DNA from: a virus
Taxonomy: Duplodnaviria; Heunggongvirae; Uroviricota; Caudoviricetes
DNA length: 64,000 nucleotides
Strand: one strand, 5' to 3'
IMG/VR virus record: IMGVR_UViG_3300030000_000409
Coordinates: 10,284-74,283 of that record
Position numbers and translations under genes: made by a program. Below are positions 1 through 26,807 of this stretch, piece by piece (position 1 is the stretch's first letter; each line of letters begins with the position of its first letter). A model generated the notes under the pieces. That model had not been told where the DNA came from. It did no database searches and saw only the letters and a program-made list of their open reading frames with translations.

Positions 1-1
1 A

Positions 2-478
2 TGGTATCAAGGTAAATCTGAAAGTGGTAATAGAGCTTTAGGCAATCGTAGTATTTTAGCCGATCCACGTAATCCCAATATTAAAAACATTATCAACACC
101 AGAATTAAACTACGTGAAGATTTTAGACCATTTGCTCCAAGCGTGTTAGAAGAACACTACAAAGAATTCTTTTTAACCAATCAGCCTAGTCCATTTATGT
201 CTCGTATTATGCCTGTTATTTCTAATAAAATTCCAGGAGTCACACATGTTGACAGAACAGCTAGAATACAAACAGTTTCAGTAGGAGACAATGAAAAATT
301 CCATAAACTTATATCTGAATTTTACAAAATAACTGGTATTCCGATGGTTTTAAATACTAGTTTCAATTGTCGAGAACCCATTGTTGAAACTCCCCGTGAT
401 GCAGTAAACACGTTCATTAAATGTGGTCTTGATATTTTAATTATCGACAACTATTTAATTGAGAAATATAATGATTGA
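2..478 (+). CDS. O-carbamoyltransferase (NodU/CmcH family), C-terminal part; 5' end lies outside the window
   Basis: Frame-2 translation from nt 2 gives ...GNRALGNRSILADPRNP...REDFRPFAPSV...TSFNCREPIVETPRDA. These are hallmark motifs of the NodU/CmcH/TobZ carbamoyltransferase C-terminal domain. The ORF track picks it up only from an internal Met at 143. Confidence 0.6.
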   Translation, partial: WYQGKSESGNRALGNRSILADPRNPNIKNIINTRIKLREDFRPFAPSVLEEHYKEFFLTNQPSPFMSRIMPVISNKIPGVTHVDRTARIQTVSVGDNEKFHKLISEFYKITGIPMVLNTSFNCREPIVETPRDAVNTFIKCGLDILIIDNYLIEKYND

Positions 479-1097
479 TTTTAAAAATGGTACAGTGTCA
501 TTAGAATTTTTTAGAAGAGTGCTAAAAGAAATAAAACACAAACCAGATAGACGACATACTCTTTTAGATTCGCTAAGTGACAATCAGTTTTCATCTAAAA
601 AGAGAATAGTTGAACTTATTGATAAACTGAATCTTAGCAAAGAAACAGAAGTAGTTATCTTTGGGTGTTGGTATGGTAGTGTATTAATACCGTTGCTATG
701 TAATGACTTCAAAAGAATTACGGGAATAGATAAAGATGATGATTCGATTAAGACATCCAAATCTAATCTTTTCAATGGGTTTCCACATATAGATTTTATA
801 ACAGATGATGTGTTCACGAGATACTTAGAAAGATATAAACGTACAAGTCTGATTATAAACTGTTCATGTGAAAATATGAGGCCAATGAAAGATTGGCCAT
901 GGTGGGGTGAACTGAAAACTAACAGTTATTTTGCACTTCAATCTACAAACATTGATATAACCGAAGATCAACGAAATTGTGTCTATTCAATGGACGAATT
1001 TAAGAATCAATTGCCAAAATCGTTTAAGATTTTGTATGAGGATGAACTTACTGATGATAGAGGGATAAGATATTCTCTAGTTGGACGAATCAATTAA
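459..1097 (+). CDS. class I SAM-dependent methyltransferase
   Basis: Motif I-like VVIFGCWYGSVLIPLL and motif II-like ITGIDKDDDSI. The start overlaps the carbamoyltransferase stop, so the two genes are likely co-transcribed. Confidence 0.5.
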   Translation: MRNIMIDFKNGTVSLEFFRRVLKEIKHKPDRRHTLLDSLSDNQFSSKKRIVELIDKLNLSKETEVVIFGCWYGSVLIPLLCNDFKRITGIDKDDDSIKTSKSNLFNGFPHIDFITDDVFTRYLERYKRTSLIINCSCENMRPMKDWPWWGELKTNSYFALQSTNIDITEDQRNCVYSMDEFKNQLPKSFKILYEDELTDDRGIRYSLVGRIN

Positions 1098-1122
1098 AGA
1101 AAGGTTTATAATCAGATTCTTT

Positions 1123-1130
1123 ATAAATAG
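1123..1130 (+). promoter_or_regulatory. T4-type late promoter TATAAATA
   Basis: Exact TATAAATA 29 nt upstream of the ORF at 1159. Confidence 0.35.
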
Positions 1131-1648
1131 ATTTCTAAGGTAACATCGAGGTTTATTTATGTCAACACGGTTTTTAATTGAGATGTCACACCCTAGAATA
1201 GTAAATCATGAAATGTTAGTTGCTACATTTATTCGAGATTGGAATAAGGATCAATGTTTTTATTATCCTGTCTACCAAATAGATAATAAAGCACTGATGA
1301 CTCATGTTTTATTGAAATTTTCTGGTGATGAATCCGTAACAGTTTTTGCACGAGCAAACATAAATTCAGATACTAAAGATTTTGAAAAATTACAATTGAA
1401 AAATTGGGATTTCATTCAAATCTGATAGTTAAAATGTTATAATACGTTATGTCTATTTAATAGGGTAAAAATGCAAACTTCTAAAATGTCGTTGAGTCAA
1501 TTTCTTATCGAGTCGGAAAGACAATGTAAGATTAAACGTGGACAAAATCCAGATATTGGTAGAAAAATTTGTTGGTTACTTCAACCACGAAAAAGCAATA
1601 ACCTGTCAAAAGCTAATAAATAAACAATATTTATTATAGGAGTCAAAG

Positions 1649-2158
1649 ATGAAAGTTCATGAATTATTTGAAGCTGCCCAAGGTTCACCTGGTCAAGATA
1701 AAAAACTTAAGGGTGGTGCATACTACAAACCACAATACAAAAGCGACATTAGTCAGATTCGTGGTTCAGTGCTAGATTGGATGGATGAATTAGGTTTCAC
1801 TCCTGAACATATTGCTGTTGCTGTTAAGGAAATTAAAGCATCAACACTGTTTAAAAAGTTGGAAGATGCTGGTTTGAAATATGATTCTGGAGCAAAACAG
1901 GAAAAATTGGGGACACTATCATTCAATGCTAAACGTGTCTGGGGAGGACGTGGTGGTTACATCGTTTATGCAAATGGTCAGTTACGTTCTAAAACTGGAT
2001 CATCTTGGTCTGATGCGGAAAACACAACACCGTTGAAAACACCAAAACCAAGGGTTCGTGCTGGTGACCCAATCAAATCTCTCAATATGATTTACACTGC
2101 AGCTTTGACAGAAATGCTCAACAAGTGGGAAAAATATAAAAAGGCTAATGCAAAATGA
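1649..2158 (+). CDS. putative capsid-targeted internal protein (CTS-like N-terminus MKVHELFE)
   Basis: The N-terminus MKVHELFEAA resembles the T4 capsid-targeting sequence MKTYQEFIAE, which carries L/I-x-E prohead-protease sites. The same N-terminal motif recurs in six other proteins in this window. Confidence 0.4.
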   Translation: MKVHELFEAAQGSPGQDKKLKGGAYYKPQYKSDISQIRGSVLDWMDELGFTPEHIAVAVKEIKASTLFKKLEDAGLKYDSGAKQEKLGTLSFNAKRVWGGRGGYIVYANGQLRSKTGSSWSDAENTTPLKTPKPRVRAGDPIKSLNMIYTAALTEMLNKWEKYKKANAK

Positions 2159-2299
2159 TTTCACTAATCATCCTGTGTATTGTTATTTTTATAGGTCTTT
2201 GGATCTCTTCTAAAAATCACCCATATGAGGATGAAATGGGAATCAAAATTGATCAAGAAGCCCCATACAAATTAGAACCTCCTGAAAATTGGAGTAATT

Positions 2300-2326
2300 A
2301 AAAAGGAGTCCTAGGACTCCTTTTTT
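2300..2326. terminator. bidirectional rho-independent terminator
   Basis: AAAAA-GGAGTCC-TA-GGACTCC-TTTTTT: a perfect palindrome flanked by an A-tract and a T-tract, between convergent genes 1649..2158 (+) and 2325..3059 (-). Confidence 0.7.
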
Positions 2327-3059
2327 AGTTTAGCTTCTTGTCTACCAACATTGAAGATTGCGGTATAAGATTTAATTTTGGTAATTGTGTTCTTAGTGAA
2401 GAAAATGTGTTATAATAACCTGATAAAGTAGATACTTTCAATCCACTAACATTAGGAATAACAACAGTATAAACTTCTTTTGTTGTAGGTGAAACAATTA
2501 CCTTAAACAATTTGTCAGGAATAAGAGTACCATCAGACATTTTCTTTTCTGGTTGAGATGTAAAAATTGGACCAGTAATTATAAAAGTTGTTTTCTTATT
2601 AAGTGTTAAGATTTGAGTTCTATGTTCTAATGATTTCCAAATTCCTCTATTATTGTTAAGTGGTTGAGGAACAATATTTGTTAAAAAGAAACTTTCATCT
2701 GCAGCAACTATGTCATCCGCAAAATCATCAAATGGTGCAAGATGCCCTTTATCGTAATCAGTTCCAACAAAGGTTGCATTACTTGCTTGGAGTGATGATG
2801 CAACATTTGGATCTGATCTAAAATGATCTCTTCGTTTAACGTTTTGGTTTTTAATATTGTCTTCTGTTAATTTTTCAGATGTCCAAAGAGGAGTTTTTCT
2901 AACTTTTGAATATCCAACAACATAACGTTTATGACAGATAATTGTAACAGGTTCAACAGATACTGGAAAAACTCCATTATAAACCAAATCATTACAAGTC
3001 TGCGCATGAACAGAAATACTTAAGAGTCCAATAAATAATATCAGTATATAATTTTTCAT
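2325..3059 (-). CDS. secreted DNA/RNA non-specific endonuclease (beta-beta-alpha-Me, Serratia NucA/EndA-like)
   Basis: N-terminal signal peptide MKNYILILFIGLLSISVHA|Q. Active-site-like DYDKGHLAP (the DRGH motif family) and downstream NN..RG.W residues. Confidence 0.6.
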   Translation of the reverse strand: MKNYILILFIGLLSISVHAQTCNDLVYNGVFPVSVEPVTIICHKRYVVGYSKVRKTPLWTSEKLTEDNIKNQNVKRRDHFRSDPNVASSLQASNATFVGTDYDKGHLAPFDDFADDIVAADESFFLTNIVPQPLNNNRGIWKSLEHRTQILTLNKKTTFIITGPIFTSQPEKKMSDGTLIPDKLFKVIVSPTTKEVYTVVIPNVSGLKVSTLSGYYNTFSSLRTQLPKLNLIPQSSMLVDKKLN

Positions 3060-3275
3060 TTAAAATTCCTATATTAAACGTATATTTATAACAACTCACA
3101 AAAGGAATACTGATTATGGAAATCTCAACAAGCCTGATAAACGGACTAGCAGTTGGTGTTGAATATGTTCAAGGATTTGAAGAAAATGATGATGATTTTG
3201 AACATATGTTGTTGATAAGCTTTTTTCTTATTTCGTTTATATTTGAATGGTCACCTTTTGATCCGGAGGAAATTG

Positions 3276-3764
3276 ATGAATGATAAATCTGAATCCCAGT
3301 TGTTGAAATACATTAGGTCAAATGAACGAGCTCAGTATGCTAATGCAATTATTTCAATAGTTGCATCATTTATTTGTGTTTATTGTGTGTTCGGTTTTGG
3401 TATTTCCCAATTTGTAATGGGTACTATTTTCACATACATGATGAGCAAAGTGATGAACTTTTTTACTTCTATGTATTTCAAAATTTTACTCATTGGTGGG
3501 TATTATGGAGATGGAACACCGGAACCAACTGAAAATCCAAGAGGCCTCCAAGAGGCAACATTCAATGTTGTTAAGACACCAGAATCAGCACTTGGTAAAT
3601 TTATGGATGTAGAATTCTTTGATTGGATTGATCTCAAAGATCAAGATGGAAAGATACAGAGATGGAAATTTATTGGTACTACAAACACCAACAATCCACA
3701 AGCACGATTGGGATCAAATACAATGATTATGCAGCCTGGATTACTTTATCAGGTTGAACAATAA
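3276..3764 (+). CDS. small membrane protein (2 TM), unknown function
   Basis: ATG at 3276 is preceded by GGAGG. Hydrophobic segments IISIVASFICVYCVFGFGISQFVMGTIFTYMM. Confidence 0.4.
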   Translation: MNDKSESQLLKYIRSNERAQYANAIISIVASFICVYCVFGFGISQFVMGTIFTYMMSKVMNFFTSMYFKILLIGGYYGDGTPEPTENPRGLQEATFNVVKTPESALGKFMDVEFFDWIDLKDQDGKIQRWKFIGTTNTNNPQARLGSNTMIMQPGLLYQVEQ

Positions 3765-3770
3765 ACCAAG

Positions 3771-3799
3771 TTTACAATAAATATTTCCTAGGTTATAAT
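3771..3799 (+). promoter_or_regulatory. sigma70-type promoter (TTTACA-17-TATAAT)
   Basis: -35 TTTACA at 3771-3776, exact 17-nt spacer, -10 TATAAT at 3794-3799. The predicted TSS is ~3806, immediately before the 5' strand of the long stem. Confidence 0.55.
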
Positions 3800-3807
3800 T
3801 TCTTTAT

Positions 3808-4159
3808 GAAAACGCAATAATCAATTTTCACAACAGTTAGAGTTGATTAACTAAATCTAGTAAAACCCCTGTTAGCTATTAGGTACGTGAGTTGAAAGAT
3901 AAGCAACCGAAATAGATACTTGCAATTTAAATTAAAATTGATATTTGTCAGTTAAGAATAAACTGATAGGAATTTCTGATCCTTCGTAACAAGATAACAA
4001 GAAATATTGTAGGAAGAAACCTAATAGGAAATACTGGGTAAGCCGAAACTTCCCGGTGTAGGTAGATTAAATCAAAATGATGGATTAAAATTTATCATTG
4101 TTAATAGACCGAAAATTCTCGACTTTGCTTTTTGTTGGGAAATTGATTATTGCGTTTTC
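3808..4159 (+). ncRNA. candidate structured ncRNA (~350 nt) closed by a 20-22 bp terminal stem; possible Y-RNA-like partner of the downstream Ro60
   Basis: 3808-3827 (GAAAACGCAATAATCAATTT) is the perfect reverse complement of 4140-4159 (AAATTGATTATTGCGTTTTC). Pairing extends by a U-G and a C-G (3828-3829 with 4138-4139). The interval has no convincing ORF and lies between a consensus promoter and the Ro60 start at 4202. Confidence 0.4.
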
Positions 4160-4201
4160 TCTTTGCTGTAATGTTGCAGCCGCTTTTAAAGGAAATCAAA
4201 A

Positions 4202-5812
4202 ATGTCAAACTTTTACGTTGATACCGTTGCGCCAAAAATCTCCAAGCAAGTAACTCCTCAAACTGAAAAAATTCCAGGTCGCGAATCAGAAATGGTTGCG
4301 AACAATGCTGGTGGTCAAGTTTTTGCTCTTGACATGTGGAGCTACTTGGATCGATTCTTGATTCTCGGAAGTGATAAACCTTCCTACTATGCAACTGCAC
4401 AGAAGTTGACAAAAGATGCAGCTAAAAATGTCTCAGTTTGTATCAGTGCAGACGGTGTGAAAACTGTTAATCGCATTGTTGAAATCTCTCAAGGTGGTCG
4501 TGCTCCTAAGAATGATTCAGCAGTATTTGCTCTTGCAATGTGTGCAGTTTCCGGTGATGCCGAAACTGTTGCTGCTGCTTATGATGCACTATCAAAGGTT
4601 GCACGAATCGGTACCCACTTGTTCCAATTCGTTGATGCAATAAATTCAATGGGTAAATGGAATGCTGCTGCTAAACGCGGTGTTGCTGCTTGGTATACTA
4701 AGCGTGATGAAACTCGTTTGGCTGTTCAACTCTTGAAATATCAATCACGTAATGGTTGGTCTCACCGTGATGTCTTGCGTCTTGCTCACATCAAGCCAAC
4801 AAACGAATCACAGTCAGCATTGTTCCGTTATGTAACCAAGGGTGCTGAAGGTGTCGAACAAGGAACCATTGTTCCACAACTTTTGATTGATTTCGAGACT
4901 TTGAAGCGTGGTGTAGATTCTAAGAAGGTGATCAGCATCATCGAATCTAACAAGGATATTTCATGGGAAATGATTCCTACTGAATTCCAAAAAGACGTAA
5001 ATGTTATGGCAACACTTATCCCTGGTATGGGTGTTACTGCACTGATTCGTAAGTTGGGTCAACTAACTTCTTTGGGTTTGGCTAAACCTCTTTCCACTGA
5101 ATTGAAAGCAATCGTTGATAAGTTGACTGATGTTGCTGCAATTAAGTCAGGACGTGTTCACCCAATCACTATCTTGAATGCATTTAACCAATACAAACAA
5201 GGTCATGGTGATAAAGGTTCATTGACTTGGACTCCATCTCAACATATTCTTGATGCATTGGATGCTGCATTTTACGATGCATTTCAGTTCATTGAATCAA
5301 CTGGTCAGGGTCACCTTATCGGTGTTGATTGTTCTGGTTCTATGTTTAGCTACCAATGTATCGGTGCTAGCAATATCACTGCCGCAGAAGCAGCTGCTGT
5401 AATGGCTTTGGCTGTTGCGAAACGTGAATCCAATTACTGGATCGGTGGATTCAACACTCGTATGGGTGAATTGAAGATTTCTCCATCTATGCGTCTTGAT
5501 GCAGTTCTGAATGTTATGCGTAAGTTCTCTTGGGGTGGAACTGATTGTTCTCTTCCAATGGAACATGCTATCCAACAGAAAATGAGCAACGTTAACAAGT
5601 TCATCGTCTTTACTGACAATGAAACTTATGCAGGTAAGCGTCAGCCTGTGCAAGCTTTGGCTGATTACCGTAAGCGCTATGTTCATGATGCTAAGTTGAT
5701 CGTATGTGGAACTTCGGTTACCAACTTTACGATTGCTGATCCTAAGGATCCAGGCATGTTGGATATTGCAGGATTTGATTCTGCTGTACCTCAGTTGATT
5801 CAGAGTTTTTGA
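4202..5812 (+). CDS. rsr: Ro60-like TROVE-domain protein with C-terminal vWA (MIDAS) domain
   Basis: LDRFLILGSDKPSYYATAQKL and DSAVFALAMCAV match conserved Ro60/Rsr TROVE segments (LxRFLxxGSExGTYY, PMLFALAIC). The C-terminal GVDCSGSM is a vWA DxSxS MIDAS motif. GCT/GGT/CGT/GTT-rich codon usage resembles highly expressed phage genes. Confidence 0.75.
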   Translation: MSNFYVDTVAPKISKQVTPQTEKIPGRESEMVANNAGGQVFALDMWSYLDRFLILGSDKPSYYATAQKLTKDAAKNVSVCISADGVKTVNRIVEISQGGRAPKNDSAVFALAMCAVSGDAETVAAAYDALSKVARIGTHLFQFVDAINSMGKWNAAAKRGVAAWYTKRDETRLAVQLLKYQSRNGWSHRDVLRLAHIKPTNESQSALFRYVTKGAEGVEQGTIVPQLLIDFETLKRGVDSKKVISIIESNKDISWEMIPTEFQKDVNVMATLIPGMGVTALIRKLGQLTSLGLAKPLSTELKAIVDKLTDVAAIKSGRVHPITILNAFNQYKQGHGDKGSLTWTPSQHILDALDAAFYDAFQFIESTGQGHLIGVDCSGSMFSYQCIGASNITAAEAAAVMALAVAKRESNYWIGGFNTRMGELKISPSMRLDAVLNVMRKFSWGGTDCSLPMEHAIQQKMSNVNKFIVFTDNETYAGKRQPVQALADYRKRYVHDAKLIVCGTSVTNFTIADPKDPGMLDIAGFDSAVPQLIQSF

Positions 5813-5853
5813 GGTTACTGACGATACCATTTAGGTGGTAGTTAACTTCTCAT

Positions 5854-5887
5854 ATGGGATATAGTGTAATGCTTTATCCCATTTTTT
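5854..5887 (+). terminator. rho-independent terminator after the Ro60 gene
   Basis: ATGGGATA-(13 nt loop)-TATCCCAT followed by TTTTTT. Confidence 0.6.
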
Positions 5888-6335
5888 ATAACTAGGAAAT
5901 AAAATGCTAGAACGTTTGTGTCTTTACATAAAGAACTTATTTGAATCTTGTGCAGAAATGTCAATTCACACTCAGATGTGGACTGATGGATATTCTGATT
6001 ATGAGATTGAACTTGCAATTAAAAATTATCGCAATGAAGAAAATGAATCCTAAAACGAAAAGTCCAAAAGAGAGATTGGTATTACCAACAACCCCTGAAA
6101 AACGTGCACTCACATTGCTTATTCAATTGTGGAGAGTTTATGATGCGGGTGGTATTTCAGTCGGAAGATGTTTTGAGTCAGTACTTCTTGAAGCAGCAAT
6201 AGATTTATTAGGTGAACCAGATCATGATGACATTGATAGAGCAGATTCAAAGGGTGCAGAGTTAGTCAATGAAACACGTGATTATTTGTCAGCTATCCGA
6301 TTGAAAGAATACAATGAAAAATGGGGGCTAGAAGC

Positions 6336-6860
6336 ATGAAAGATTTCAGTATTATCTGCGCAGTGTCTTTAGATGGAATCATTGGTGATTCTGAAACAAA
6401 TACAATTCCTTGGTATCTTCCAAGCGACCTAAAACATTTCAAAGCGTTAACTTTAGAAAAAACTGTTGTTATGGGATCACGTACCTTCAGAAGTATTGGT
6501 AGGCCACTGCCAAATAGAGACAATATTGTTATAAGTAGGACTCCATTTATCCAAGAAGGTGTTAAAGCAATCTATAGAAGTTTTGAAGATGTTCATCGCT
6601 ATGAACATGATGGATTTGTTGTGATTGGTGGTGAACATATTTACGGTGAAGCACTCAAACATTCACCATCTACAATGTTTATAACGGTTGTCAATTCTTT
6701 ACCAGATGGTGATGTAAGGTTTCCAATTGCGGGCAGGCGATTCCTTCAAGATTCCGTTTTGACTTCAACTAATATCAAATACACTTGTTCTGATAGGTCA
6801 GAATGGCTAAATGAAAATGGGATAGAATTCCAATATACAGAATTTAAAAGGGCACAATGA
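6336..6860 (+). CDS. frd: dihydrofolate reductase
   Basis: MKDFSIICAVSLDGIIG...IPWYLPSDLKHFKALTLEKTVVMGSRTFRSIGRPLPNRDNIV matches the DHFR signature. Start taken at the second ATG, which is preceded by GGGGG. Confidence 0.85.
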   Translation: MKDFSIICAVSLDGIIGDSETNTIPWYLPSDLKHFKALTLEKTVVMGSRTFRSIGRPLPNRDNIVISRTPFIQEGVKAIYRSFEDVHRYEHDGFVVIGGEHIYGEALKHSPSTMFITVVNSLPDGDVRFPIAGRRFLQDSVLTSTNIKYTCSDRSEWLNENGIEFQYTEFKRAQ

Positions 6861-7411
6861 AAATTTTTATTGACACAGAATTTACAGATTTCATAAATCA
6901 AGACTTAATTTCAATTGGTGCAGTTGCTGAAAACGGTGAAACATTTTATGGTGAAAATGCTGAGTTTAAGAGAGCTTGGTCTTCTCAATTTGTAAAAGAT
7001 AATATCTATCCACTACTTAACATGGATAAATTTGGTATGCGACGAGTCGAACTTGCATCTAGATTGTGGGCATGGATGGAAGAGTTTGATTGTGATATCA
7101 CCATTGTCGTTGATTATCTGGGTGATAGTGAATTACTTAATCATCTATTTCAAGATGACCATCCGAAAATACAAGAACATCATCTTATCAAGATGGTTAT
7201 TTGGAACAAATGTGCCAACTATTTTCTTCCCGAAAATGAAGAAAAGTTTAAATTAGTTTTTAACAAAATGACAAATGCATTTAAAACTCATCTAAATGAA
7301 TATTTTCTCGTTACCGGTGAGCACCCACATCATTCATTATCAGATGCTAAAGCAAATAGGGAAGCATATTTGAGAGTGTTTAAAGATTTTCAAAATAAAG
7401 TGTACTTCTAA
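6857..7411 (+). CDS. dexA: DEDDh-family 3'-5' exonuclease (T4 DexA-like)
   Basis: Exo I motif IFIDTEFTD, with downstream D and H-x4-D motifs (VVDYLGD, HHSLSD). Confidence 0.55.
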   Translation: MKIFIDTEFTDFINQDLISIGAVAENGETFYGENAEFKRAWSSQFVKDNIYPLLNMDKFGMRRVELASRLWAWMEEFDCDITIVVDYLGDSELLNHLFQDDHPKIQEHHLIKMVIWNKCANYFLPENEEKFKLVFNKMTNAFKTHLNEYFLVTGEHPHHSLSDAKANREAYLRVFKDFQNKVYF

Positions 7412-7445
7412 TATAAATCAGGTTATAATCTATCATGATCAATAA

Positions 7446-7823
7446 ATGGAGTTTGATGTGAAACGTTTTCTATTCTGTTTAGCAATGTTTTCTTCTTCTG
7501 TGTTTGCACAGAATGTGAATAACTATCTTCCTGGTGCAGGTGAACGTATTCCAGAATCAGCATCTGGTCCGGGTATCGTCTATACCCAACAAGTTGTTGG
7601 TAAGGTTATCAGTGTTGGAAGTCCAGTTTACAAGAATGTTCCAGTTGTTCAACAATGCGCAAATGGTTCAGTATGTGGGGTTGCATTTGATAACCAATTG
7701 ATTGGCTACAGTTTTGTTGTTGCCTACAAACATCTTCAAATGCAAGGGTTCATGACTCGACTTCCTCAAATTGGTGAAGACAGTATCATCATTGTTCGTA
7801 GTATTTATTATCCTACAAATTGA
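7446..7823 (+). CDS. secreted protein with signal peptide, unknown function
   Basis: MEFDVKRFLFCLAMFSSSVFA|QN signal peptide. Confidence 0.4.
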   Translation: MEFDVKRFLFCLAMFSSSVFAQNVNNYLPGAGERIPESASGPGIVYTQQVVGKVISVGSPVYKNVPVVQQCANGSVCGVAFDNQLIGYSFVVAYKHLQMQGFMTRLPQIGEDSIIIVRSIYYPTN

Positions 7824-7843
7824 TTGATTTTAAATGCCGGTGT

Positions 7844-8413
7844 TTATGAATCACTGGGCAGTGAGAATCCCACTCTAATAGATATAACTGCACCGTCTGA
7901 GTTCCTTCTTATATATAACGTACCTTCAACGTAACCACCCGCATAGTCACCGTATGATGTTCCTACAACATTAAGTGTAGAAGTAATTGGTACATAACCT
8001 GAATCATACCCATTACCAACACCCACATTAAAAACTACCCATCCACCCATACTCACTGTTGTGACAAATCGTGCTGAGTATGCTGATCCGACTCCTGCTA
8101 TTGGTGGTGTTATGTAATTAACTGAGCATGATAGTGTCCCATTAGTATAGATTGAAAGGGAACCGGATGATGTGCCATTTGTACCAGAATTAAAAGTTCC
8201 ACCTGCATCCACATATGAAAGGTTTGGATTAAAGCCGAAGGTTCCACTAGCAGAACTTTTACCCCATCCATCACTCATAGAAATTATTCCACTTGGTTTT
8301 CCGAATAGAGTTCTCACTGCAGTATCATTTAATGATATAGGAGTAGTTGAGCCTGCCCCCAGTTCTGTGTTGACTTGTGATAGTGATATAAGGCCAGAAG
8401 CAGGAAGTGTCAT
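7844..8413 (-). CDS. tail-fibre tip/adhesin paralog 3 (conserved N-terminus MTLPASGLISLSQVN, G/S/T/N/Y-rich variable C-terminus)
   Basis: Shares ~50-aa N-terminus with the two upstream genes and a divergent glycine-rich C-terminus. Lies directly downstream of the tail-fibre gene. Confidence 0.5.
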   Translation of the reverse strand: MTLPASGLISLSQVNTELGAGSTTPISLNDTAVRTLFGKPSGIISMSDGWGKSSASGTFGFNPNLSYVDAGGTFNSGTNGTSSGSLSIYTNGTLSCSVNYITPPIAGVGSAYSARFVTTVSMGGWVVFNVGVGNGYDSGYVPITSTLNVVGTSYGDYAGGYVEGTLYIRRNSDGAVISIRVGFSLPSDS

Positions 8414-8425
8414 AATTTATCTATT

Positions 8426-8956
8426 TTAAGCAATTGATACTTGATATGTACCACCAGCACCAAATCCAAACAATGAGTTGGTCCAAGTCCAAATACTATA
8501 GTTGTAAGCTGGATATGCTTCAAAAGTCGCACTTGATGTAAGTAATGTTTTATTATTAGCAGAAACAGATTTAACAAATGTTGAACTAACAACACCTATA
8601 AGCATTAAGAAACATACATTTGCTGTATAATACGCACCATCAGAAGTTTGATCAGCAAACCACACTATTTCAACTCCATTGAAATAGTGATTAGATAGTG
8701 AACCCATATTACCCCACGCATAAGGACTATATCCAACTCCAAGTCCACTGGACATGTTACCACCAGCAACCATAGTGTACCCGGTTCCAATGGCTGTACT
8801 TTTACCCCATCCATCACTAAGTGATATAATCCCACTAGGTTTACCAAATAATGTTCTTACCGAAGAATCATTTAATGAGCATGGCGAAGTAGCTGAATTA
8901 CCTAATTCAACGTTGACCTGTGAAATGGAAATTGTTCCTGAAGCTGGTAATGTCAT
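8426..8956 (-). CDS. tail-fibre tip/adhesin paralog 2
   Basis: N-terminus MTLPASGTISISQVNVELG..SLNDSSVRTLFGKPSGIISLSDGWGKS is conserved with paralogs 1 and 3; the C-terminus is variable. Confidence 0.5.
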   Translation of the reverse strand: MTLPASGTISISQVNVELGNSATSPCSLNDSSVRTLFGKPSGIISLSDGWGKSTAIGTGYTMVAGGNMSSGLGVGYSPYAWGNMGSLSNHYFNGVEIVWFADQTSDGAYYTANVCFLMLIGVVSSTFVKSVSANNKTLLTSSATFEAYPAYNYSIWTWTNSLFGFGAGGTYQVSIA

Positions 8957-8971
8957 AATTTATCCACTGTT

Positions 8972-9487
8972 TTAAGAAATTGATATTTGATAAGATGAAC
9001 CATTATTAAAAAGTGGTATTTGAGAAGTAGTCCAGCTCCACACGGTTAGTGACTCATATTGATAGTAAGTAGAAGAAGAAGAATATACCGTTGTACCAGC
9101 ATATAAAATTGAAGTAAAAAAATTCTGTGCAACTAAACCCAAAATTGTAAATTCAAGATAGTAGAGATTAGTCCCATTACCCATTGCACTAGTGTATAGG
9201 TCTACAACTGTTAAACCTTTGAATGTATCCGGTGATAAGCTACCTATAAGACCAAATGGTGGGTAAACATAACCTGTTCCATATCCATTAGTGCCTGCTA
9301 CTAAAGTGTGAGTTGACCCAGTTGAATTGCTTTTACCATATAGATTGAATAAACTTATGGCACCACTTTGTATACCTGCTAAATTTCTAACAACTGAATC
9401 ATTCAATGAAATTGTGGTGGTCGCCGCTTTACCAAGCTCAACATTCACTTGAGATAGTGAAATTAATCCAGATGCTGGTAACGTCAT
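8972..9487 (-). CDS. tail-fibre tip/adhesin paralog 1
   Basis: Conserved N-terminus MTLPASGLISLSQVNVELG; starts 2 nt after the tail-fibre stop. Confidence 0.5.
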   Translation of the reverse strand: MTLPASGLISLSQVNVELGKAATTTISLNDSVVRNLAGIQSGAISLFNLYGKSNSTGSTHTLVAGTNGYGTGYVYPPFGLIGSLSPDTFKGLTVVDLYTSAMGNGTNLYYLEFTILGLVAQNFFTSILYAGTTVYSSSSTYYQYESLTVWSWTTSQIPLFNNGSSYQISIS

Positions 9488-9488: not shown

Positions 9489-12400
9489 TTATTTGTTCTT
9501 CAAAAGATCAATTTCAGCTTTGAGCTCTTTGATAGCTTCAATTAACAATGGCACTATCTTACTGTAATCAACAGTTTTAAATTTTTCACCGTCTAACTCA
9601 ATAGACTCAGTAACAATTTCTGGCATAATACTATTTACTTGATCTGCATTAATACCGTAATCATGTTTACCTGCTTTCATTTCAGTATGTTGGAAACCAT
9701 GCTTCCATGTAAATGTACCACCATCCAACTTAGAAATCATTTCAAGAGGATTTTGAATACGTGTGAAGTTTTCTTTTAATCTTGGATCAGAATATGCAGA
9801 TACGTTACCAGCAGCAACCGTATTTCCAGATGGGTCAGTGTACCATGACCAAGCTGCACGAGACCAACCACCAATACCAAAGTATCCATCTGCACGAACA
9901 CCCATCTTGATAGCATATGTATCATTGTAAAATGATAAACCAGCTAAATTAGTATCGCCAGCTCCAGATGCTCTACACACAAAAGAACCTGGTGATGTAT
10001 CATTGACAGCCATTCCAACACCACTTGTTCTACCAGTTATCAAGCTCGTCTGAGCAGTAGCGCTTAAGTATGTAGCAGTACCTGCATTTCCAGAAATGTT
10101 GGTTTGATCACCGGTATTAACACCAGATAGAGTAGTTATACCTAATTTAGTTTTAATCGTGGCGGCAGTTTCATCACCAGTATTGCTACCAGAAACTGCA
10201 TCAAGTTTAATTTTATCAGCAGCTGACATGAAACCGTTAATAGCGGTAGTTACTACAGCATGAGCAGCACCATTGGAACCAACGTGGGCCAATGGTGCAC
10301 TTGCAGCAATTGCGGCAGCTTGTGCACCATTAATGGCTGACGCTTGAGCTGTTGATACTGGCTTATTAACATCTGATATATTATCTACGTTACCTAATCC
10401 AACATCAGCCTTAACCAATGTTACTACACCTGTCTTACCAGCAACAGAATCAACTGCGCCAGAAGTAATGTAAACATAACTACTACCAGACCATCTGTAA
10501 GTCTTGTTGGTATCTAAAGCAACATAAATCTTACCTGATTCACCAGTTGCTGGGAATGCTGCTAAGTTGGCAGCTTCGATAACATCATCAACATAACTTG
10601 GCAACTGAGTTGTTGGAACTTTTCCAGTATTATCAAGTGTTGCAACTCCATTTAATGCGCCCAAAAGAGAACTTGCAACCCTACTAGTAGAATCAATAGC
10701 ATTAATTATTATGTCTGCTGAACCGTTAAAAGAAACCCCGTTGATAGTACGGGCTGTTTGCAACGTTGTTGCTGTTGCAGCGTTACCTGAAATAGTAGTC
10801 TGTATTTGGTGAACGTGATCTGCTCTAGCAGCAGTAGTACTAGTTCCAACAGCAGCAGTTCCATTATTTAATGGGGTTGTTGAAGAAAGACCGGTAATAG
10901 AATTAAATGATGTTCCAGTGATAGCTCCGGTAACTGCGAGTGAGCCAAGAGTTCCAAGAGATGTTATGTTAGGTTGTGCGGCAGTTTGAAGTGTACCAGC
11001 AAATCCAATAGCAGATAATATTCCAGTGCTAGGAATAAAAGAAAGTTTTGAATTTGAAACGTTCAATGTTTGATCGCCTGAAATATCACTCACCCATACT
11101 GGATAAACAGCAGTAGATGGAAGAACATCATTCGTTACATTAGATGCTGCAGATGAAGATGCAGAGACAGTTGATGTTGAGATACCAGTTACCAAACCCT
11201 TAGCATTAACTGTCACAATTGGAATTAATGTAGCAGAACCAAATGTTCCAACATTGGAATTTACTGTAGCCAATGTAGCATTTATTGTAGCATTTGCACT
11301 ACCATTAAATGATGCTGAACCAGATATATCAGCAGCTAATGTGATAGTTCTTGATGTTGCAAGTGCATTTGCAGTAGAAGCATTTCCAATTAAGCTAGCA
11401 GTTATTGTTCCAGCTGAAAAATTACCAGATGTATCTCTTGAAACTATAGTGGATGCAGTATTTACAGATGTTGCATTAGAGTCTATGATTATATTTCCAT
11501 TGACGCCATCAGGATTCGTTATGGATAATCCTACACCAGTAACAGCGACAGAACGAGAAGCACTAGCACCACTAGCTATTTTAACAATTAAACCATTTGA
11601 TGATAATCCAGTGACAGATGTAAGCAATGTGTTTAATGGTTGTGCATCAGTAATTCCATAACCTGTTAATGTGGTTGGAGTATTGACAATCGTTGACCAC
11701 GGTTGAGTTGAAGATGCAGAAATAACTCTACCGTAAATATCAACTGTTACATTTGAATAAAGTCCAGCAGATACACCAGTAGCTGCCAAATCAATAGTGT
11801 CAACATCAACGGTAATTCTTGAAGATGATGCAGTACCGACACTGAATGTATTACCAGATTTTGTTAAACCAGCACCAGCAACTAATTCACCAGGTCTACT
11901 GAACACTGAGAATGCTAATGGTGAAGTACCTAAAACTATGGTGCCATACGTTACTAAGATCCAAGAACTGTTTCCATTTAATGTTCCAGTTTCAACATAT
12001 ACAAGGTCACCAGCAGCAACTTCATTGGTTGGAGATCCATCAAAGTCAGTAGCTCTTGCCCATGCACCAGAAGAAACAACATAAACACCGTTTTCAGCAG
12101 CATTCGTTTGATCTTTTACCAATACACGTGTTCCAGAACCAGCAATAACACCATCTAAAGTTTGGATACCAGATAATGCAATATTTGCAGTTGTTGAAGT
12201 TAACACTGCTAAATGTGGTGACACACCAGCAGCAATATTATCAACGTAATCTTTTGTTGTTAAATGAGAACCAGATACTGGTGAAGCTCCAGTTACAGGA
12301 GAAGAGAATGTCCAGGAACCGGTAACTGTTTCATTTCCAGCAACTCTCGTAAGAACATTTGCATCTGCGATCTGTGATTCATTTATTGAAAGAGCTGCTT

Positions 12401-13064
12401 GGTGTTGTGTTACATTGTTAGAAGAGATTCTAGAATTATTAAATGTACCAGAAACTATAGCAGATGTATCAATGCTCGGTGAATTATTTGATGCTGAAGA
12501 AATTCTACCCTTTGAATCAACAGTGAATGATGGAATAGAAGAATTGGATCCATAAGTCCCTGCACTTACTCCACTAGCTGATAATGTGAGTGTTATAGAT
12601 GTTGAACCTGATCCAACACCATCACCTGAAATACTAATATTCTGGTTAGCTGAAAGATATGAATTTGTGTCTAGAGTCCAAGTATTGACTGCAATTTTCT
12701 TTAATGTACCAAAACTTCCAGAGAGTGCAGCAATGGAAGTAAGATCACCATCAAGTGATTGTGCATCTGTTATTCCATAACCAGCTAACGTTGTTGGTTT
12801 AGAACCACCTACAACTAGTCCCTTACTATTTACATTTACCAATGAATATGTACCAGCAGAAATCACGGCGGGCAACAACAATGTTAAATCAGAAGAAGCA
12901 CTCAATTGAGGAACCCATGATGCACCATTGTTAACAAAAAGTTGATCCAAATCTGACTTATAAAAAAGTTCTCCTATTTGTCCAATAGGTAAAACCGTAC
13001 CAGAAGAAACTGCTAAATTTGAAACCTCTGATCCATCTACCATTTTGATACTGTCGAATAACAT
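9489..13064 (-). CDS. tail fibre protein (1191 aa) with C-terminal intramolecular chaperone / peptidase S74 autoproteolytic domain
   Basis: Repeated fibre motifs (TLAGYGITDAQ twice) in a Gly/Ser/Thr-rich beta-rich sequence. The C-terminal ~100 aa, YSDPRLKENF...GGTFTWKHG...VDYSKIVPLLIEAIKELKAEIDLL, matches the S74 intramolecular chaperone consensus (SD.RLK.NI...F.WK...LL.EAIKEL). The cleavage Ser codon is near 9789-9791. Confidence 0.75.
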   Translation of the reverse strand: MLFDSIKMVDGSEVSNLAVSSGTVLPIGQIGELFYKSDLDQLFVNNGASWVPQLSASSDLTLLLPAVISAGTYSLVNVNSKGLVVGGSKPTTLAGYGITDAQSLDGDLTSIAALSGSFGTLKKIAVNTWTLDTNSYLSANQNISISGDGVGSGSTSITLTLSASGVSAGTYGSNSSIPSFTVDSKGRISSASNNSPSIDTSAIVSGTFNNSRISSNNVTQHQAALSINESQIADANVLTRVAGNETVTGSWTFSSPVTGASPVSGSHLTTKDYVDNIAAGVSPHLAVLTSTTANIALSGIQTLDGVIAGSGTRVLVKDQTNAAENGVYVVSSGAWARATDFDGSPTNEVAAGDLVYVETGTLNGNSSWILVTYGTIVLGTSPLAFSVFSRPGELVAGAGLTKSGNTFSVGTASSSRITVDVDTIDLAATGVSAGLYSNVTVDIYGRVISASSTQPWSTIVNTPTTLTGYGITDAQPLNTLLTSVTGLSSNGLIVKIASGASASRSVAVTGVGLSITNPDGVNGNIIIDSNATSVNTASTIVSRDTSGNFSAGTITASLIGNASTANALATSRTITLAADISGSASFNGSANATINATLATVNSNVGTFGSATLIPIVTVNAKGLVTGISTSTVSASSSAASNVTNDVLPSTAVYPVWVSDISGDQTLNVSNSKLSFIPSTGILSAIGFAGTLQTAAQPNITSLGTLGSLAVTGAITGTSFNSITGLSSTTPLNNGTAAVGTSTTAARADHVHQIQTTISGNAATATTLQTARTINGVSFNGSADIIINAIDSTSRVASSLLGALNGVATLDNTGKVPTTQLPSYVDDVIEAANLAAFPATGESGKIYVALDTNKTYRWSGSSYVYITSGAVDSVAGKTGVVTLVKADVGLGNVDNISDVNKPVSTAQASAINGAQAAAIAASAPLAHVGSNGAAHAVVTTAINGFMSAADKIKLDAVSGSNTGDETAATIKTKLGITTLSGVNTGDQTNISGNAGTATYLSATAQTSLITGRTSGVGMAVNDTSPGSFVCRASGAGDTNLAGLSFYNDTYAIKMGVRADGYFGIGGWSRAAWSWYTDPSGNTVAAGNVSAYSDPRLKENFTRIQNPLEMISKLDGGTFTWKHGFQHTEMKAGKHDYGINADQVNSIMPEIVTESIELDGEKFKTVDYSKIVPLLIEAIKELKAEIDLLKNK

Positions 13065-16851: not shown

Positions 16852-17595
16852 ATGCTTGGTTTATCTCTAAGAACACACAATGTTCGAAATCTCTTTATTT
16901 CCATCCTTGAACAAAAACTCTTTACTTCTGTAAATCGAGAAGGGTCAATGACTGACCTGGTTGGTAATACAACAATCGAAATTGTTAATGCATCGTTCAT
17001 TGCAGATGAACCTTCAATCTTCGGTGAAGTCAATTTAGATTATGTCAGACGTGAAGAAGAATGGTATAATTCAATGTCACTTAACGTGAATGATATTCCA
17101 GGTGGAGCTCCAGCAGTCTGGAAAGCAGTGGCTGATGAAAATGGTTTTATCAATTCCAATTACGGTTGGGCTATCTATTCTCCAGATAATGGTTTTGATG
17201 AACTACCTCTCAACGAGAATAATGAATTAAACTCTCAGTACGGTTCCGTAGTAAAAGAACTCCGTAAAAATCCTGAATCACGTCGAGCAATGATGATCTA
17301 CACTCGACCTTCAATGTGGTTAGATTACAACAAGAATGGTCGTTCTGACTTCATGTGTACGAATGCAGTCCAATATCTGATACGTGGTGGCAAAATCCAT
17401 TCAATAGTTCAGATGCGCAGCAATGATGCAGTGTTCGGTTACAAAAATGATTGGGCATGGCAAAAACACGTACTTGACAAATTAGCAAATGATTTAAGTA
17501 TTCCATCTGGGAATATTTTCTGGAATGTTGGAAGTCTTCATGTATATTCAAGACATTACCACCTTGTTGATCCAATTAACTACAGTAGGAAATAA
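16852..17595 (+). CDS. 42: deoxycytidylate (pyrimidine dNMP) hydroxymethylase, T4 gp42-like
   Basis: Near-collinear similarity to T4 gp42 as recalled: TIEIVNASFIADEPSIFG, INSNYGWAIYS, RRAMMIYTRPSM, DFMCTNAVQYLIR, MRSNDAVFGYKNDWAWQKHVLDKL, IFWNVGSLHVYSRHY. Confidence 0.75.
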   Translation: MLGLSLRTHNVRNLFISILEQKLFTSVNREGSMTDLVGNTTIEIVNASFIADEPSIFGEVNLDYVRREEEWYNSMSLNVNDIPGGAPAVWKAVADENGFINSNYGWAIYSPDNGFDELPLNENNELNSQYGSVVKELRKNPESRRAMMIYTRPSMWLDYNKNGRSDFMCTNAVQYLIRGGKIHSIVQMRSNDAVFGYKNDWAWQKHVLDKLANDLSIPSGNIFWNVGSLHVYSRHYHLVDPINYSRK

Positions 17596-21199: not shown

Positions 21200-21781
21200 A
21201 TGATTACAAATTTTTTAATTGAGGGACTAGATAGATTAGGAAAGGATACCCTTATCGATGGATTATTAAATCGATATGGGTATGCTGAAGTCCATCATCG
21301 TAAGAAACCATTATCGCTTTCCTTTTACAACAATTTTGCTACTCCAAATCGTTCAGGTTTACAGCTTTATCAATCTTCGTGTTTCAAACATGACATGCAA
21401 TTATTGAAAGTTTCTGAATTATGTGGTATTAAAAATATCTTCAATCGTGCATGGTTGGGTGAAGCTGTTTATTCAAATCTCTACCGAGGATATGACGGCA
21501 ATTACGTCTTTGAATTGGAAAATGAATGTGATCTTCACAAATTACAATCAACTCGACTGATTCTTTTAATTGAAGATTTTAATACTTCCAAACACTTTGT
21601 TGATGATGGTGACTCATTTGACATTTCTAAACGTGTTGAGGAACAGGACATGTTCGTTAGAGCGTTTGATAAATCATTGATCAAAGATAAACGAATTGTA
21701 TGTGTCACTGATTTTAGGACCGGTCAATTCAAAAGCAAAGAACAAATACTTGAAGAAGTAACAATGGAGATTACCACTTGA
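21200..21781 (+). CDS. 1: deoxynucleoside monophosphate kinase, T4 gp1-like (hm-dCMP/dNMP kinase)
   Basis: IEGLDRLGKDTLIDGL parallels the T4 gp1 P-loop LSGVKRSGKDTTADFI. Start and stop overlap the neighbouring genes, consistent with one operon. Confidence 0.5.
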   Translation: MITNFLIEGLDRLGKDTLIDGLLNRYGYAEVHHRKKPLSLSFYNNFATPNRSGLQLYQSSCFKHDMQLLKVSELCGIKNIFNRAWLGEAVYSNLYRGYDGNYVFELENECDLHKLQSTRLILLIEDFNTSKHFVDDGDSFDISKRVEEQDMFVRAFDKSLIKDKRIVCVTDFRTGQFKSKEQILEEVTMEITT

Positions 21782-22992
21782 AAGTAGCAGTAATTAAATT
21801 GGGGTCCCGCATTTCTTTTAATGCCAATGATACATCCGGGGCAAACGGTGAAGCTCGAAGTATCTGTAAAATGTTGAAGCTTGGTGGAGCCGAAGTTCAT
21901 ATTTACACAAAAATATTGAAGAAAGATAATCTTATCGAAGATTATCATTGGCATTCTTTAAACACTGTAGAAGCATCTAAAGTAAGTGATATTGAAGAAC
22001 GTATTTTTGTTGATAAATATTCAAGCACTTATATTGAACACCGTAAAATTCAATTAGTTGGTGACCTATCTAATATGGATGCATTGGTTGTACTAAATGG
22101 AACAGTTCAATTTTATGGTGGTGAGGAAGATCCAGAACAATTGTTGAATTATTTTATCATCAACAACTTCAAGGGTAAAGTGTTCTACATTTACTGTGAT
22201 CCAGAACTTACATTGAAGCAGGTATGGCCTTCAGTTTCAAAGAAGCCTTGGGCTAGTAACTGGTCACAATCTGATCTTGAGATAACCCGTACAGATATCG
22301 TTTATTTAAGTCAACCACATAATGTTAACCACATTTTAGATGACCTTAAAAAGAACGAAGTTATTCCTCGAGAAATTATTCACTACCCTTTTGAACAGTT
22401 TCCGTGTTTGAATGAACAACTCCCATTCAATCCATCTCCTGAAGTTGATCTATCTTATGGTGGAACAATGCGTGGTGGTAAACGTGAAAAGAAGATGGCA
22501 AGATTTTACTTTGGACATACTTCAGAACTTTCTGTTGAAATGTTCGGTAAGATTAAAGAGGAAGATTTCAACCCTAAAAATATCTTCGGTTTAACAACAC
22601 CAACATTTTCTGGTCCAGTCAAGTACGATGACATGCTTCCTAAAATGAATAAGTCGATGGCACATTGTGTTATCGGTGATCCATATTATGAAAAGATTGA
22701 AGATATGGCACAACGTTGCTATGAATCTATCTGGTCAAATGTTGTGACTTTCATTGACAGTGACATGGATAAGTTACGACGAGTGTATGGTAAAGATAGA
22801 GTTTTGTCTGATTTTCTTTATGTCACAGATCGTCAAGAGCTAGCAGAAAAGATTCTTCTACTCAAGGAAGATAATGATCTAAGAAAACAAATTCTTCAAG
22901 ATCAACTAAAGGCGGTGAACTTCAATCCTGAAAAATACTGTACAGATTTTGTTAACCTTATTAAACTTTTTGCATCACTAAAATATGATTAA
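21778..22992 (+). CDS. bgt: DNA beta-glucosyltransferase (hmC-DNA beta-glucosyltransferase)
   Basis: Collinear with T4 beta-gt as recalled: MKVAVIKLGSRISFN vs MKIAIINMGNNVINF; KVFYIYCDPELTLKQVWPSVSKKPWA vs KIYYLFTDIRLPFSQSWPNVKNRPWA; DLSYGGTMRGGKREKKM vs DVIYGGSFRSGQRESKM; CVIGDPYYE vs LIIGDKNYN. TTG start with GGAG 9 nt upstream. Confidence 0.75.
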   Translation: MKVAVIKLGSRISFNANDTSGANGEARSICKMLKLGGAEVHIYTKILKKDNLIEDYHWHSLNTVEASKVSDIEERIFVDKYSSTYIEHRKIQLVGDLSNMDALVVLNGTVQFYGGEEDPEQLLNYFIINNFKGKVFYIYCDPELTLKQVWPSVSKKPWASNWSQSDLEITRTDIVYLSQPHNVNHILDDLKKNEVIPREIIHYPFEQFPCLNEQLPFNPSPEVDLSYGGTMRGGKREKKMARFYFGHTSELSVEMFGKIKEEDFNPKNIFGLTTPTFSGPVKYDDMLPKMNKSMAHCVIGDPYYEKIEDMAQRCYESIWSNVVTFIDSDMDKLRRVYGKDRVLSDFLYVTDRQELAEKILLLKEDNDLRKQILQDQLKAVNFNPEKYCTDFVNLIKLFASLKYD

Positions 22993-25312: not shown

Positions 25313-25324
25313 GGATAATCAAAA

Positions 25325-26759: not shown

Positions 26760-26807
26760 CAGTCTATTAAATAAATAAATCATCAAATAACACATAAAGG
26801 ATAACAC

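Follow-up and report, generated by a model that had tools for sequence, protein, structure and literature searches.

The window analysed here, a stretch of 64,000 nucleotides (nt) from a tailed phage (Caudoviricetes; IMG/VR record IMGVR_UViG_3300030000_000409, positions 10,284 to 74,283), opens with two overlapping genes, one for a carbamoyltransferase that is cut by the window edge and one for a putative methyltransferase, which are the subject of this analysis:

2..478, + strand: 3' part of the carbamoyltransferase gene, coding for the YrdC-like carbamoyl-phosphate/ATP domain at the C-terminus (final 158 of 506 residues)
471..1097, + strand: methyltransferase of 208 amino acids (aa), class I Rossmann-fold, from a phage-restricted family
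471..478, + strand: start/stop overlap ATGATTGA, with the methyltransferase ATG at 471-473 and the carbamoyltransferase TGA at 476-478, as read off the sequence

The gene pair and its products

Frame 2 has no internal stop between positions 2 and 478, ends in EKYND followed by the stop codon, and contains all three carbamoyltransferase motifs that a first-pass annotation of this DNA had named. That reading of the motifs is borne out by the matches of the fragment to Pfam Carbam_trans_C (PF16861; E=9.8e-61, profile positions 12-170 of 170) and to PHROG 1601, the ‘Nol-like carbamoyltransferase’ group (E=9e-63). The upstream part of the gene was found on contig L002 (ENA ERZ27250048, 29.4 kb), which we obtained by an exact-protein look-up of the methyltransferase (three metagenome contigs matched), which is 100% identical to the window across the 1200 nt compared, and which reaches 9.5 kb upstream of it, window position 1 being L002 position 9531. 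The complete gene (L002 8488-10008) starts 1042 nt upstream of the window and encodes 506 aa, with the whole of Carbam_trans_C (E=1.6e-64, 217 bits, profile 1-170 of 170) and the N-terminal, Kae1/ASKHA-like Carbam_trans_N (PF02543; E=7.9e-21, partial, profile 123-344 of 346) on one polypeptide. The first-pass annotation had rightly called the gene truncated, its N-terminal part lying upstream, but had taken the missing domain for the carbamoyl-phosphate/ATP-binding one; that domain is the visible one, and the domain cut off binds the acceptor.

The best solved relatives of the full-length protein are the O-carbamoyltransferases GdmN, TobZ and NovN (E ~1e-49; about 170 bits for TobZ and GdmN). 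In HMMER alignments to TobZ chains (TobZ numbering being the chain index minus 6), the metal ligands H114, H118, D137 and D338 are kept as H113, H117, D136 and D283 of the phage enzyme, and the carbamoyl-phosphate/ATP residues K443, M473 and S530 as K384, a conserved Met and S468, all three inside the window part. An N-terminal stretch, LNMHDHN...EERYSRKKH, we take to resemble the H14 region of TobZ. At the level of sequence, the gene is confirmed as a real member of the NodU/CmcH/TobZ family of carbamoyltransferases, with transfer of a carbamoyl group to a hydroxyl as its predicted reaction. With TobZ, GdmN and NovN it shares the two-domain architecture, the metal ligands, the carbamoyl-phosphate/ATP residues and, by implication, a mechanism through carbamoyl-adenylate, the intermediate through which the TobZ-type reaction reportedly passes (Parthier et al., 2012, as cited in PMC8670742). 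The phage enzyme is, however, shorter (506 aa against 576-702), and its acceptor pocket is not comparable with theirs because no more than 92 residues of the N-terminal domain can be aligned by sequence. Nor is it a NodU orthologue, since it reaches only 123.5 bits against the NCBIfam NodU equivalog (NF041651), whose cut-off is 1000.

For the second gene, the sequence evidence is marginal (Pfam MTS, E=0.044; NCBIfam Erm(A), E=0.0013; family profile against PDB entry MJ0882, E=1e-4), and the Pfam search gave neither a NodS match nor a significant match to any methyltransferase family. A structure predicted from an alignment of database homologues has a seven-stranded Rossmann-like fold with the β6-β7 hairpin of class I S-adenosylmethionine (SAM)-dependent methyltransferases. 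The predicted SAM motif I is divergent (EVVIFGCWYGS, with the loop FGCWYGS instead of GxGxG), D87 and D113, invariant or nearly so, stand where the acidic residue after β2 and the Asp after β3 are expected, and NxSCEHM is an invariant motif specific to the family. This motif and the divergent glycine-rich loop set the protein apart from NodS (12% identity), RebM and NovP; in the fold comparison, twenty other small-molecule methyltransferases lie within 1.7 Z units. The likeness to NodU/NodS drawn in the first-pass annotation thus holds for the carbamoyltransferase family but extends neither to the NodU equivalog nor to a NodS match. Likewise, its class I methyltransferase coupled to the carbamoyltransferase stands as regards fold and gene overlap, whereas coupling itself is no more than compatible with the data and the sequence matches are marginal: the overlap ATGATTGA would fit translational coupling, and the overlap is 1-10 nt long in homologous loci with called open reading frames (ORFs) and 4-8 nt long in loci L018-L022.

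The methyltransferase family comprises at least 219 proteins, and among 50,697 records of isolated phages exactly one matches, Mosig_00090 (46% identity) of Pelagibacter phage Mosig EXVC030M. A bacterial origin of the family was considered and rejected: three of the four ‘bacterial’ matches, which come from metagenome-assembled genomes (MAGs) in a set of 185,579 species genomes, are phage contigs with the cassette described below, and the fourth is a 718-nt fragment that carries only the methyltransferase. In three IMG/VR loci (L008, L012 and L017; e.g., L008 9507-11129) the methyltransferase is tandemly duplicated and fused in a single ORF of 520-541 aa, the GCWYG of the glycine-rich loop being replaced by GCKH in the second copy.

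The cassette and its distribution

The two genes close a conserved cassette that runs from a SPASM-like and a radical SAM protein through a DegT aminotransferase and another radical SAM protein to the carbamoyltransferase and the methyltransferase. On the cassette strand of L002, the genes are, in order:

Gene 1: 283-aa protein of no recognised family
Gene 2: 262-aa PP-loop-like protein (SGGSDS)
Gene 3: 94-aa Cys-rich SPASM-like protein
Gene 4: 251-aa radical SAM protein
Gene 5: 357-aa DegT/DnrJ/EryC1 aminotransferase (E=1e-82)
Gene 6: 270-aa radical SAM protein
Genes 7-8: the carbamoyltransferase, then the methyltransferase

Because a megablast of window positions 1-6000 against the 50,697 phage records gave no match, relatives were sought at the protein level. 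A scan of IMG/VR returned 13 loci with methyltransferase homologues, and by tblastn and ORF clustering the order DegT, 270-aa radical SAM protein, carbamoyltransferase, methyltransferase is found in 12 of them, usually with the pair of SPASM-like and 251-aa radical SAM proteins ahead of it, together with one of the 283-aa and PP-loop proteins. In L009, no carbamoyltransferase lies within the 1.4 kb available upstream of the methyltransferase. The order recurs in Mosig, in L018-L022, in L032 and in three MAG contigs (L027-L029), which also hold genes that flank the tail fibres in Mosig, for a total, besides Mosig, of about 20 viral or metagenomic contigs; exceptions are L028 and L032, in which a nitroreductase-like gene stands between the carbamoyltransferase and the methyltransferase. 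Nitroreductase-like proteins also belong to the variable extras of the cassette, together with one to three GDSL/SGNH-like proteins. Directly after the methyltransferase, 10 of the 15 loci first examined (the 13 from IMG/VR, L002 and Mosig) encode a GT8 glycosyltransferase (Pfam, E=2e-5), with two proteins that bear DxD-like motifs besides; past these lie convergent genes that include long repetitive tail fibres. L027-L029 show the same arrangement. The cassette of the window phage stops at the methyltransferase.

The closest described counterpart is Mosig (MT647606), where the two genes are annotated as ‘putative carbamoyltransferase’ (Mosig_00089) and ‘putative methyltransferase’ (Mosig_00090). 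As in the window, they are adjacent, overlapping and in the same order, and have the two radical SAM proteins, the DegT aminotransferase and the 283-aa protein (g283) upstream. Mosig_00089 is 52% identical to the carbamoyltransferase over the full length and 70% in the C-terminal domain; Mosig_00090, as given above, is more distant. In contrast, Mosig continues with GT8, F9, nitroreductase-like and F10 genes, which the window phage does not have, and the latter has PP-loop and GNAT genes upstream. The two phages belong to otherwise unrelated lineages: in the 141 kb of Mosig, a genome about 76% complete, we found no homologue of the gp42, β-glucosyltransferase (β-gt), CofD-HAD, ThyA, DHFR, TROVE or topoisomerase II genes of the window. 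As the cassette is common to both, it has presumably been transferred horizontally, and its movement between unrelated lineages makes it appear to confer a portable advantage.

More distant are the ‘Nol-like carbamoyltransferases’ of cyanophages, which fall in the same PHROG (1601), share 45-58% identity in the C-terminal domain and are likewise sporadic auxiliary genes of marine myophages. They align, however, only from about residue 110 on, at 30-38% identity, and in the two cyanophages inspected the gene stands alone: S-SSM7 has it between uvsW and gp55, S-CAM8 among 2-oxoglutarate/Fe(II) oxygenases near tail fibres. No methyltransferase was found in the cyanophages, and no 270-aa radical SAM partner save for one partial match (30%) in S-SCSM2R. 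In all, 136-142 phage records, most of them from T4-like cyanophages, contain NodU-like carbamoyltransferases, which were already listed for T4-like marine phages by Sullivan et al. (2010); with the pair annotated in Mosig as well, the description of these genes as unusual for this type of phage does not hold. A search for literature on carbamoyltransferases with pelagimyophages, or with cyanophages and radical SAM proteins, found no papers. While the enzyme families are therefore known in marine phages, and the pair itself is annotated in Mosig, what goes beyond existing annotation is 1) the fixed, mobile cassette of radical SAM, DegT, radical SAM, carbamoyltransferase and methyltransferase genes, 2) the phage-restricted methyltransferase family and the radical SAM family, and 3) the occurrence of the cassette in a phage with genes for 5-hydroxymethylcytosine (5hmC) and β-gt.

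Two features of the cassette region stand by themselves. The Cys-rich SPASM-like module is in L002 (5563-6584) a separate 94-aa gene upstream of its 251-aa radical SAM partner, while in a paralogous copy elsewhere (L011 4156-5226, L013 1754-3052) it is fused C-terminally, so that the arrangement in L002 is both split and permuted. At the upstream end of L002 (1-3814, between 9.5 and 5.7 kb before the window begins), a sodium:solute symporter (SSF) gene, of which the 3' end is present, is followed on the minus strand by genes divergent from the cassette, which encode two proteins of the PP-loop-like kind (motifs SGGLDS and SGKDS), another protein, of 203 aa, and a GNAT acetyltransferase. None of these was found in any other cassette locus, and the minus-strand PP-loop and GNAT genes, which we considered as cassette members, were rejected as they are absent from all other loci searched. 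A transporter gene is unusual for a phage contig, and this end of L002 may be a chimeric assembly.

Proposed chemistry and destination of the product

The DegT aminotransferase is closest to nucleotide-sugar 3-/4-aminotransferases, namely QdtB (3e-54), LegC and PseC (~1e-53), ArnB (2e-47), WbpE (1e-45) and perosamine synthetase (5e-42). Where a dehydratase or dehydrogenase of the short-chain dehydrogenase/reductase type would be expected, none of which is in the cassette, stand the two small radical SAM proteins with their C-terminal cysteine clusters. The 270-aa protein, from a family of at least 1040 proteins, has an invariant CxxxCxxC and four invariant C-terminal cysteines, and its fold neighbours are the twitch/SPASM enzymes EpeE, MoaA, BtrN and anSME, of which BtrN and anSME are radical SAM dehydrogenases that convert an alcohol to a carbonyl. 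Profile searches against the PDB gave superfamily-level matches only for the two radical SAM proteins, and insignificant matches only for the 283-aa and the 262-aa PP-loop-like proteins.

On this basis, we consider the balance about even for a reading in which a conserved, mobile phage operon makes a decorated amino sugar, or a polyol closely related to one, and the pair supplies its final two tailoring enzymes. Family memberships, catalytic residues and gene order are observed; every substrate in the scheme that follows, and the order of its steps, we infer from them. A twitch/SPASM-type radical SAM enzyme, in place of an NAD-dependent dehydrogenase or dehydratase, would oxidise a sugar hydroxyl to a ketone, which the DegT enzyme, a pyridoxal-phosphate aminotransferase by family, would convert to an amine. 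The C-terminal YrdC-like domain of the carbamoyltransferase would then form carbamoyl-AMP from carbamoyl phosphate and ATP, and the N-terminal Kae1-like domain, whose catalytic residues are present, would use it to carbamoylate a hydroxyl on the sugar intermediate. With SAM as donor, the methyltransferase would methylate the new amine, in the manner of NodS, or a hydroxyl, in that of NovP and RebM, and a glycosyltransferase would then take over the finished sugar. Precedents for such tailoring are NovN/NovP on noviose, NodU/NodS on Nod factor and CmcH/CmcI on cephamycin.

A virion glycan, or one on the envelope of the infected cell, is the likeliest destination, because in most relatives the GT8 and DxD-motif proteins follow the methyltransferase and the block adjoins tail-fibre genes. 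The block of Mosig is flanked as a whole by tail-fibre genes on one side and by VrlC/baseplate genes on the other, and the host-recognition cluster of pelagimyophages is rich in lipopolysaccharide-type genes and radical SAM cassettes (Zaragoza-Solas et al., PMC7029224). In the window phage, too, the cassette lies near host-recognition genes, since a tail fibre or spike of 1191 aa with a C-terminal Peptidase_S74 intramolecular chaperone domain is encoded 8 kb downstream of the pair (window 9489-13064, - strand). In the jumbo Xanthomonas phage XacN1, kin of the window phage by topoisomerase II, the gene for a larger NodU-like carbamoyltransferase, of 765 aa, comes immediately after one for a glycosyltransferase, with a gene of the GT9 (heptosyltransferase) family nearby (L034 219791-223508). 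One clade of phage NodU-like carbamoyltransferases is thereby set in a fixed biosynthetic context, often with glycosyltransferases beside tail fibres, and this context yields a concrete, testable chemistry, an amino sugar with groups of +43 Da and +14 Da, for which Mosig on Pelagibacter HTCC1062 offers a culturable test system. If the product is on virions or on the host surface, it would matter for how phages recognise the most abundant marine bacteria as hosts and for superinfection exclusion in them.

Several observations weigh against a tailored amino sugar bound for a virion or envelope glycan. The single best PDB match of the DegT enzyme is an entry named glutamine-scyllo-inositol transaminase (E=3e-63), so that a cyclitol product is possible; the cassette holds neither a nucleotidyltransferase nor a 4,6-dehydratase; and the 270-aa radical SAM protein, in a model with a pLDDT of 77, resembles its fold neighbours only weakly (TM 0.36-0.52). 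GT8, F9, F10, SGNH and nitroreductase genes were not found in the 73 kb of the window phage that were seen, and a scan for sigma-70 promoters gave 51 matches against 45.6 in shuffled sequence, which, with a few uninformative terminator-like sites, says nothing of expression timing. Lastly, the window phage carries genes for 5hmC and its glycosylation by β-gt, and a phage enzyme of the NodU/TobZ family has been proven to turn 5hmC in DNA, RNA and nucleoside triphosphates into 5-carbamoyloxymethylcytosine with carbamoyl phosphate and ATP (Yang et al., 2021, eLife, PMC8670742).

Some of these points would also suit a free small molecule, an aminocyclitol-, aminoglycoside- or nucleoside-like metabolite that might act, for example, as a toxin, signal or inhibitor released in infection. 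Beside the scyllo-inositol transaminase, BtrS-type 2-deoxy-scyllo-inosose aminotransferases also match the DegT enzyme, BtrN, among the fold neighbours of the 270-aa protein, is the radical SAM dehydrogenase of 2-deoxystreptamine synthesis, the nearest solved carbamoyltransferases (TobZ, GdmN and NovN) all tailor antibiotics, and the cassette of the window phage has no glycosyltransferase of its own. All these matches are, however, at the superfamily level only, none of the loci shows an inosose synthase or any other enzyme that would form a scaffold, and glycosyltransferase-like genes directly follow the pair in most loci, which makes a released metabolite distinctly improbable. A role in the nucleotide pool, in pyrimidine synthesis like that of aspartate carbamoyltransferase, or in tRNA modification as a TsaD/Kae1-type enzyme for N6-threonylcarbamoyladenosine, is effectively refuted. 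Although the cyanophage gene has been filed under nucleotide synthesis (PMC9146016), the fold and family are those of NodU/CmcH/TobZ (217 bits to Carbam_trans_C), unrelated to aspartate and ornithine carbamoyltransferases. The Pfam TsaD match is weak (E=7.6e-6, 26 bits) and arises because the N-terminal domain shares the ASKHA/Kae1 fold, whereas the NCBIfam models are far from reached (TIGR03723, 23 bits against a cut-off of 296; TIGR00329, 22 against 208). With both carbamoyltransferase domains and the TobZ catalytic residues present, the protein is therefore not TsaD/Kae1, the identity that the first-pass annotation had named as the one that would overturn its O-carbamoyltransferase.

The probable hydroxymethylcytosine system and DNA-directed alternatives

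The premise that the window belongs to a phage with hydroxymethylated and glucosylated DNA is supported by homologues of T-even gp42 and β-gt, the latter within a block of nucleotide- and sugar-related genes:

16852-17595, + strand: gp42-type dCMP hydroxymethylase, 247 aa, 53-57% identical to T-even gp42 (RB32, Moon and others)
21778-22992, + strand: β-gt homologue (Pfam E=1e-17, PHROG E=2e-51, 31% identity to T4 β-gt)
21200-27236, + strand: block with dTMP-kinase-like, β-gt, 619-aa CofD-HAD fusion (23453-25312), MobA/IspD-like nucleotidyltransferase, guanylate-kinase-like and MazG/PRA-PH genes
6321-6860: DHFR, partner of the true thymidylate synthase described below

The gp42 homologue has its catalytic Cys in ‘FMCT’ and an Asp at the position of Asn177 of E. 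coli ThyA (‘GYKND’), a replacement that switches specificity to cytosine (PMC8670742), and, judging from these residues, the phage very probably makes 5hmC. A second gene of the thymidylate synthase family (57734-58654, 306 aa) was considered as a hydroxymethylase and rejected, as it has His147 (PCH), Asn177 (GLPFNIASY) and a ThyA-like C-terminus and is a true thymidylate synthase. By its topoisomerase II large subunit, the phage is nearest to the Xanthomonas phages BUDD and X1 (55%), followed by XacN1 and the Ralstonia phage RsoM2USA. In the latter, a jumbo phage, β-gt and CofD-HAD (43% and 38% identity) are also adjacent, with gp42-like and dTMP-kinase-like genes nearby; a CofD-type phosphotransferase beside a DNA glucosyltransferase may point to a phospho-linked or otherwise unusual DNA glycan.

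It is against this background that a product directed to DNA must be weighed. The cassette could make a carbamoylated and methylated amino-sugar nucleotide, or edit the sugar after its transfer, with the β-gt homologue attaching it to 5hmC in DNA. Both homologues that this would take are in the window, the CofD-HAD, nucleotidyltransferase and kinase genes beside them could activate the sugar, a phage without GT8, F9 and F10 must use another transferase for the product, and DNA glycans of hexose, N-acetylhexosamine and heptose are documented in phages (bioRxiv 10.1101/2023.12.21.572611). That preprint, the one paper on phage DNA glycans checked for such groups, has, however, no carbamoylated or methylated sugar. 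The cassette is 16-21 kb from gp42 and β-gt, with tail-fibre and other genes between, and in its relatives adjoins tail fibres and GT8, not DNA-metabolism genes. RsoM2USA clusters gp42-like, β-gt and CofD-HAD genes without the cassette in the 23 kb inspected, whereas Mosig, with the reservation that its genome is incomplete, keeps the cassette without gp42, β-gt or CofD. The tie that had been proposed between the pair and a hypermodification cluster is accordingly not borne out, by distance and by the case of Mosig, and the presence of the cassette, as far as gene content tells, does not appear to depend on 5hmC chemistry. We consider tailoring of a DNA glycan unlikely, and its specific form, in which the β-gt homologue, possibly with the CofD-HAD, nucleotidyltransferase and kinase proteins, puts the carbamoylated and methylated amino sugar on 5hmC, quite unlikely. 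Were it true, a single tailoring cassette would plug into virion or envelope glycosylation in pelagimyophages and into DNA glycosylation here, and any product on DNA would be a new hypermodification.

More direct would be a modification of the base itself, with the carbamoyltransferase turning 5hmC in DNA or deoxynucleoside triphosphates into 5-carbamoyloxymethylcytosine, as in the precedent of Yang et al. The enzyme of that study is of the same superfamily, is phage-encoded and occurs with a thymidylate-synthase homologue that makes 5hmC in the phage; the substrate is very probably made by the window phage, and PRA-PH/MazG and thymidylate-synthase-family genes, which co-occur with it (PMC8670742), are present in the window. 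The identity between the two enzymes is, however, only 22% (46 bits, against ~170 bits to TobZ and GdmN). They differ, too, at the three positions, within 14 Å of the carbamoyl-phosphate/ATP pocket, that Yang et al. found to discriminate best: for TobZ W408, with which the first residue in the window aligns, G421 and R423, W, G and R stand in the phage enzyme and in its relatives from other cassettes, and I, C and T in the DNA enzyme, as read from its single published sequence (the text of PMC8670742 names no residues typical of the DNA clade). Close homologues of the DNA enzyme (32-39%, 262-352 bits) are in Xp15 and in Acinetobacter and Bacteroides siphophages, and marine T4-like phages reach only 22-26%. 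DNA-type enzymes are encoded at most 3 kb from genes for a thymidylate-synthase homologue, PRA-PH and a deaminase, and those on unmodified contigs beside glycosyltransferases (PMC8670742); here, the neighbours are radical SAM, DegT and methyltransferase genes, with gp42 16 kb and PRA-PH 26 kb away, a situation closer to the glycosyltransferase-adjacent type than to the DNA type. Moreover, Mosig has the carbamoyltransferase and no hydroxymethylase, and carbamoylation would compete with β-gt for the same hydroxyl. Because identity, the three residues, homologue distribution and neighbourhood all argue against it, we rank direct carbamoylation of 5hmC low, as highly improbable.

Apart from these genes, the window encodes at 4202-5812 (+ strand) a homologue of Ro60/TROVE with a vWA domain (PHROG 850, E=5e-69), preceded by a 437-nt ORF-free stretch (3765-4201); an Rfam search of window positions 1-9000 at E<=0.1 found no Y-RNA and no other family. 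Downstream of the pair lies a possible transcription signal:

1122..1129 (= L002 10652-10659), + strand: TATAAATA, consensus of T4-type late promoters; the next gene (88 aa, ATG at 1159) starts 29 nt further downstream

The motif was found 4 times against 2.7 expected, a count not above chance, so that only its placement is suggestive. No copy lies within or in front of the cassette, and the one at 1122-1129 appears to mark the downstream boundary of the cassette transcription unit. Further copies are found 10-25 nt upstream of gene starts, at window 3083-3090 (- strand), before a gene for a DNA/RNA non-specific endonuclease (2325-3059), and at L002 17952-17959 (- strand), before a 189-aa gene, and this placement suggests late transcription of the gp55 type in the window phage.

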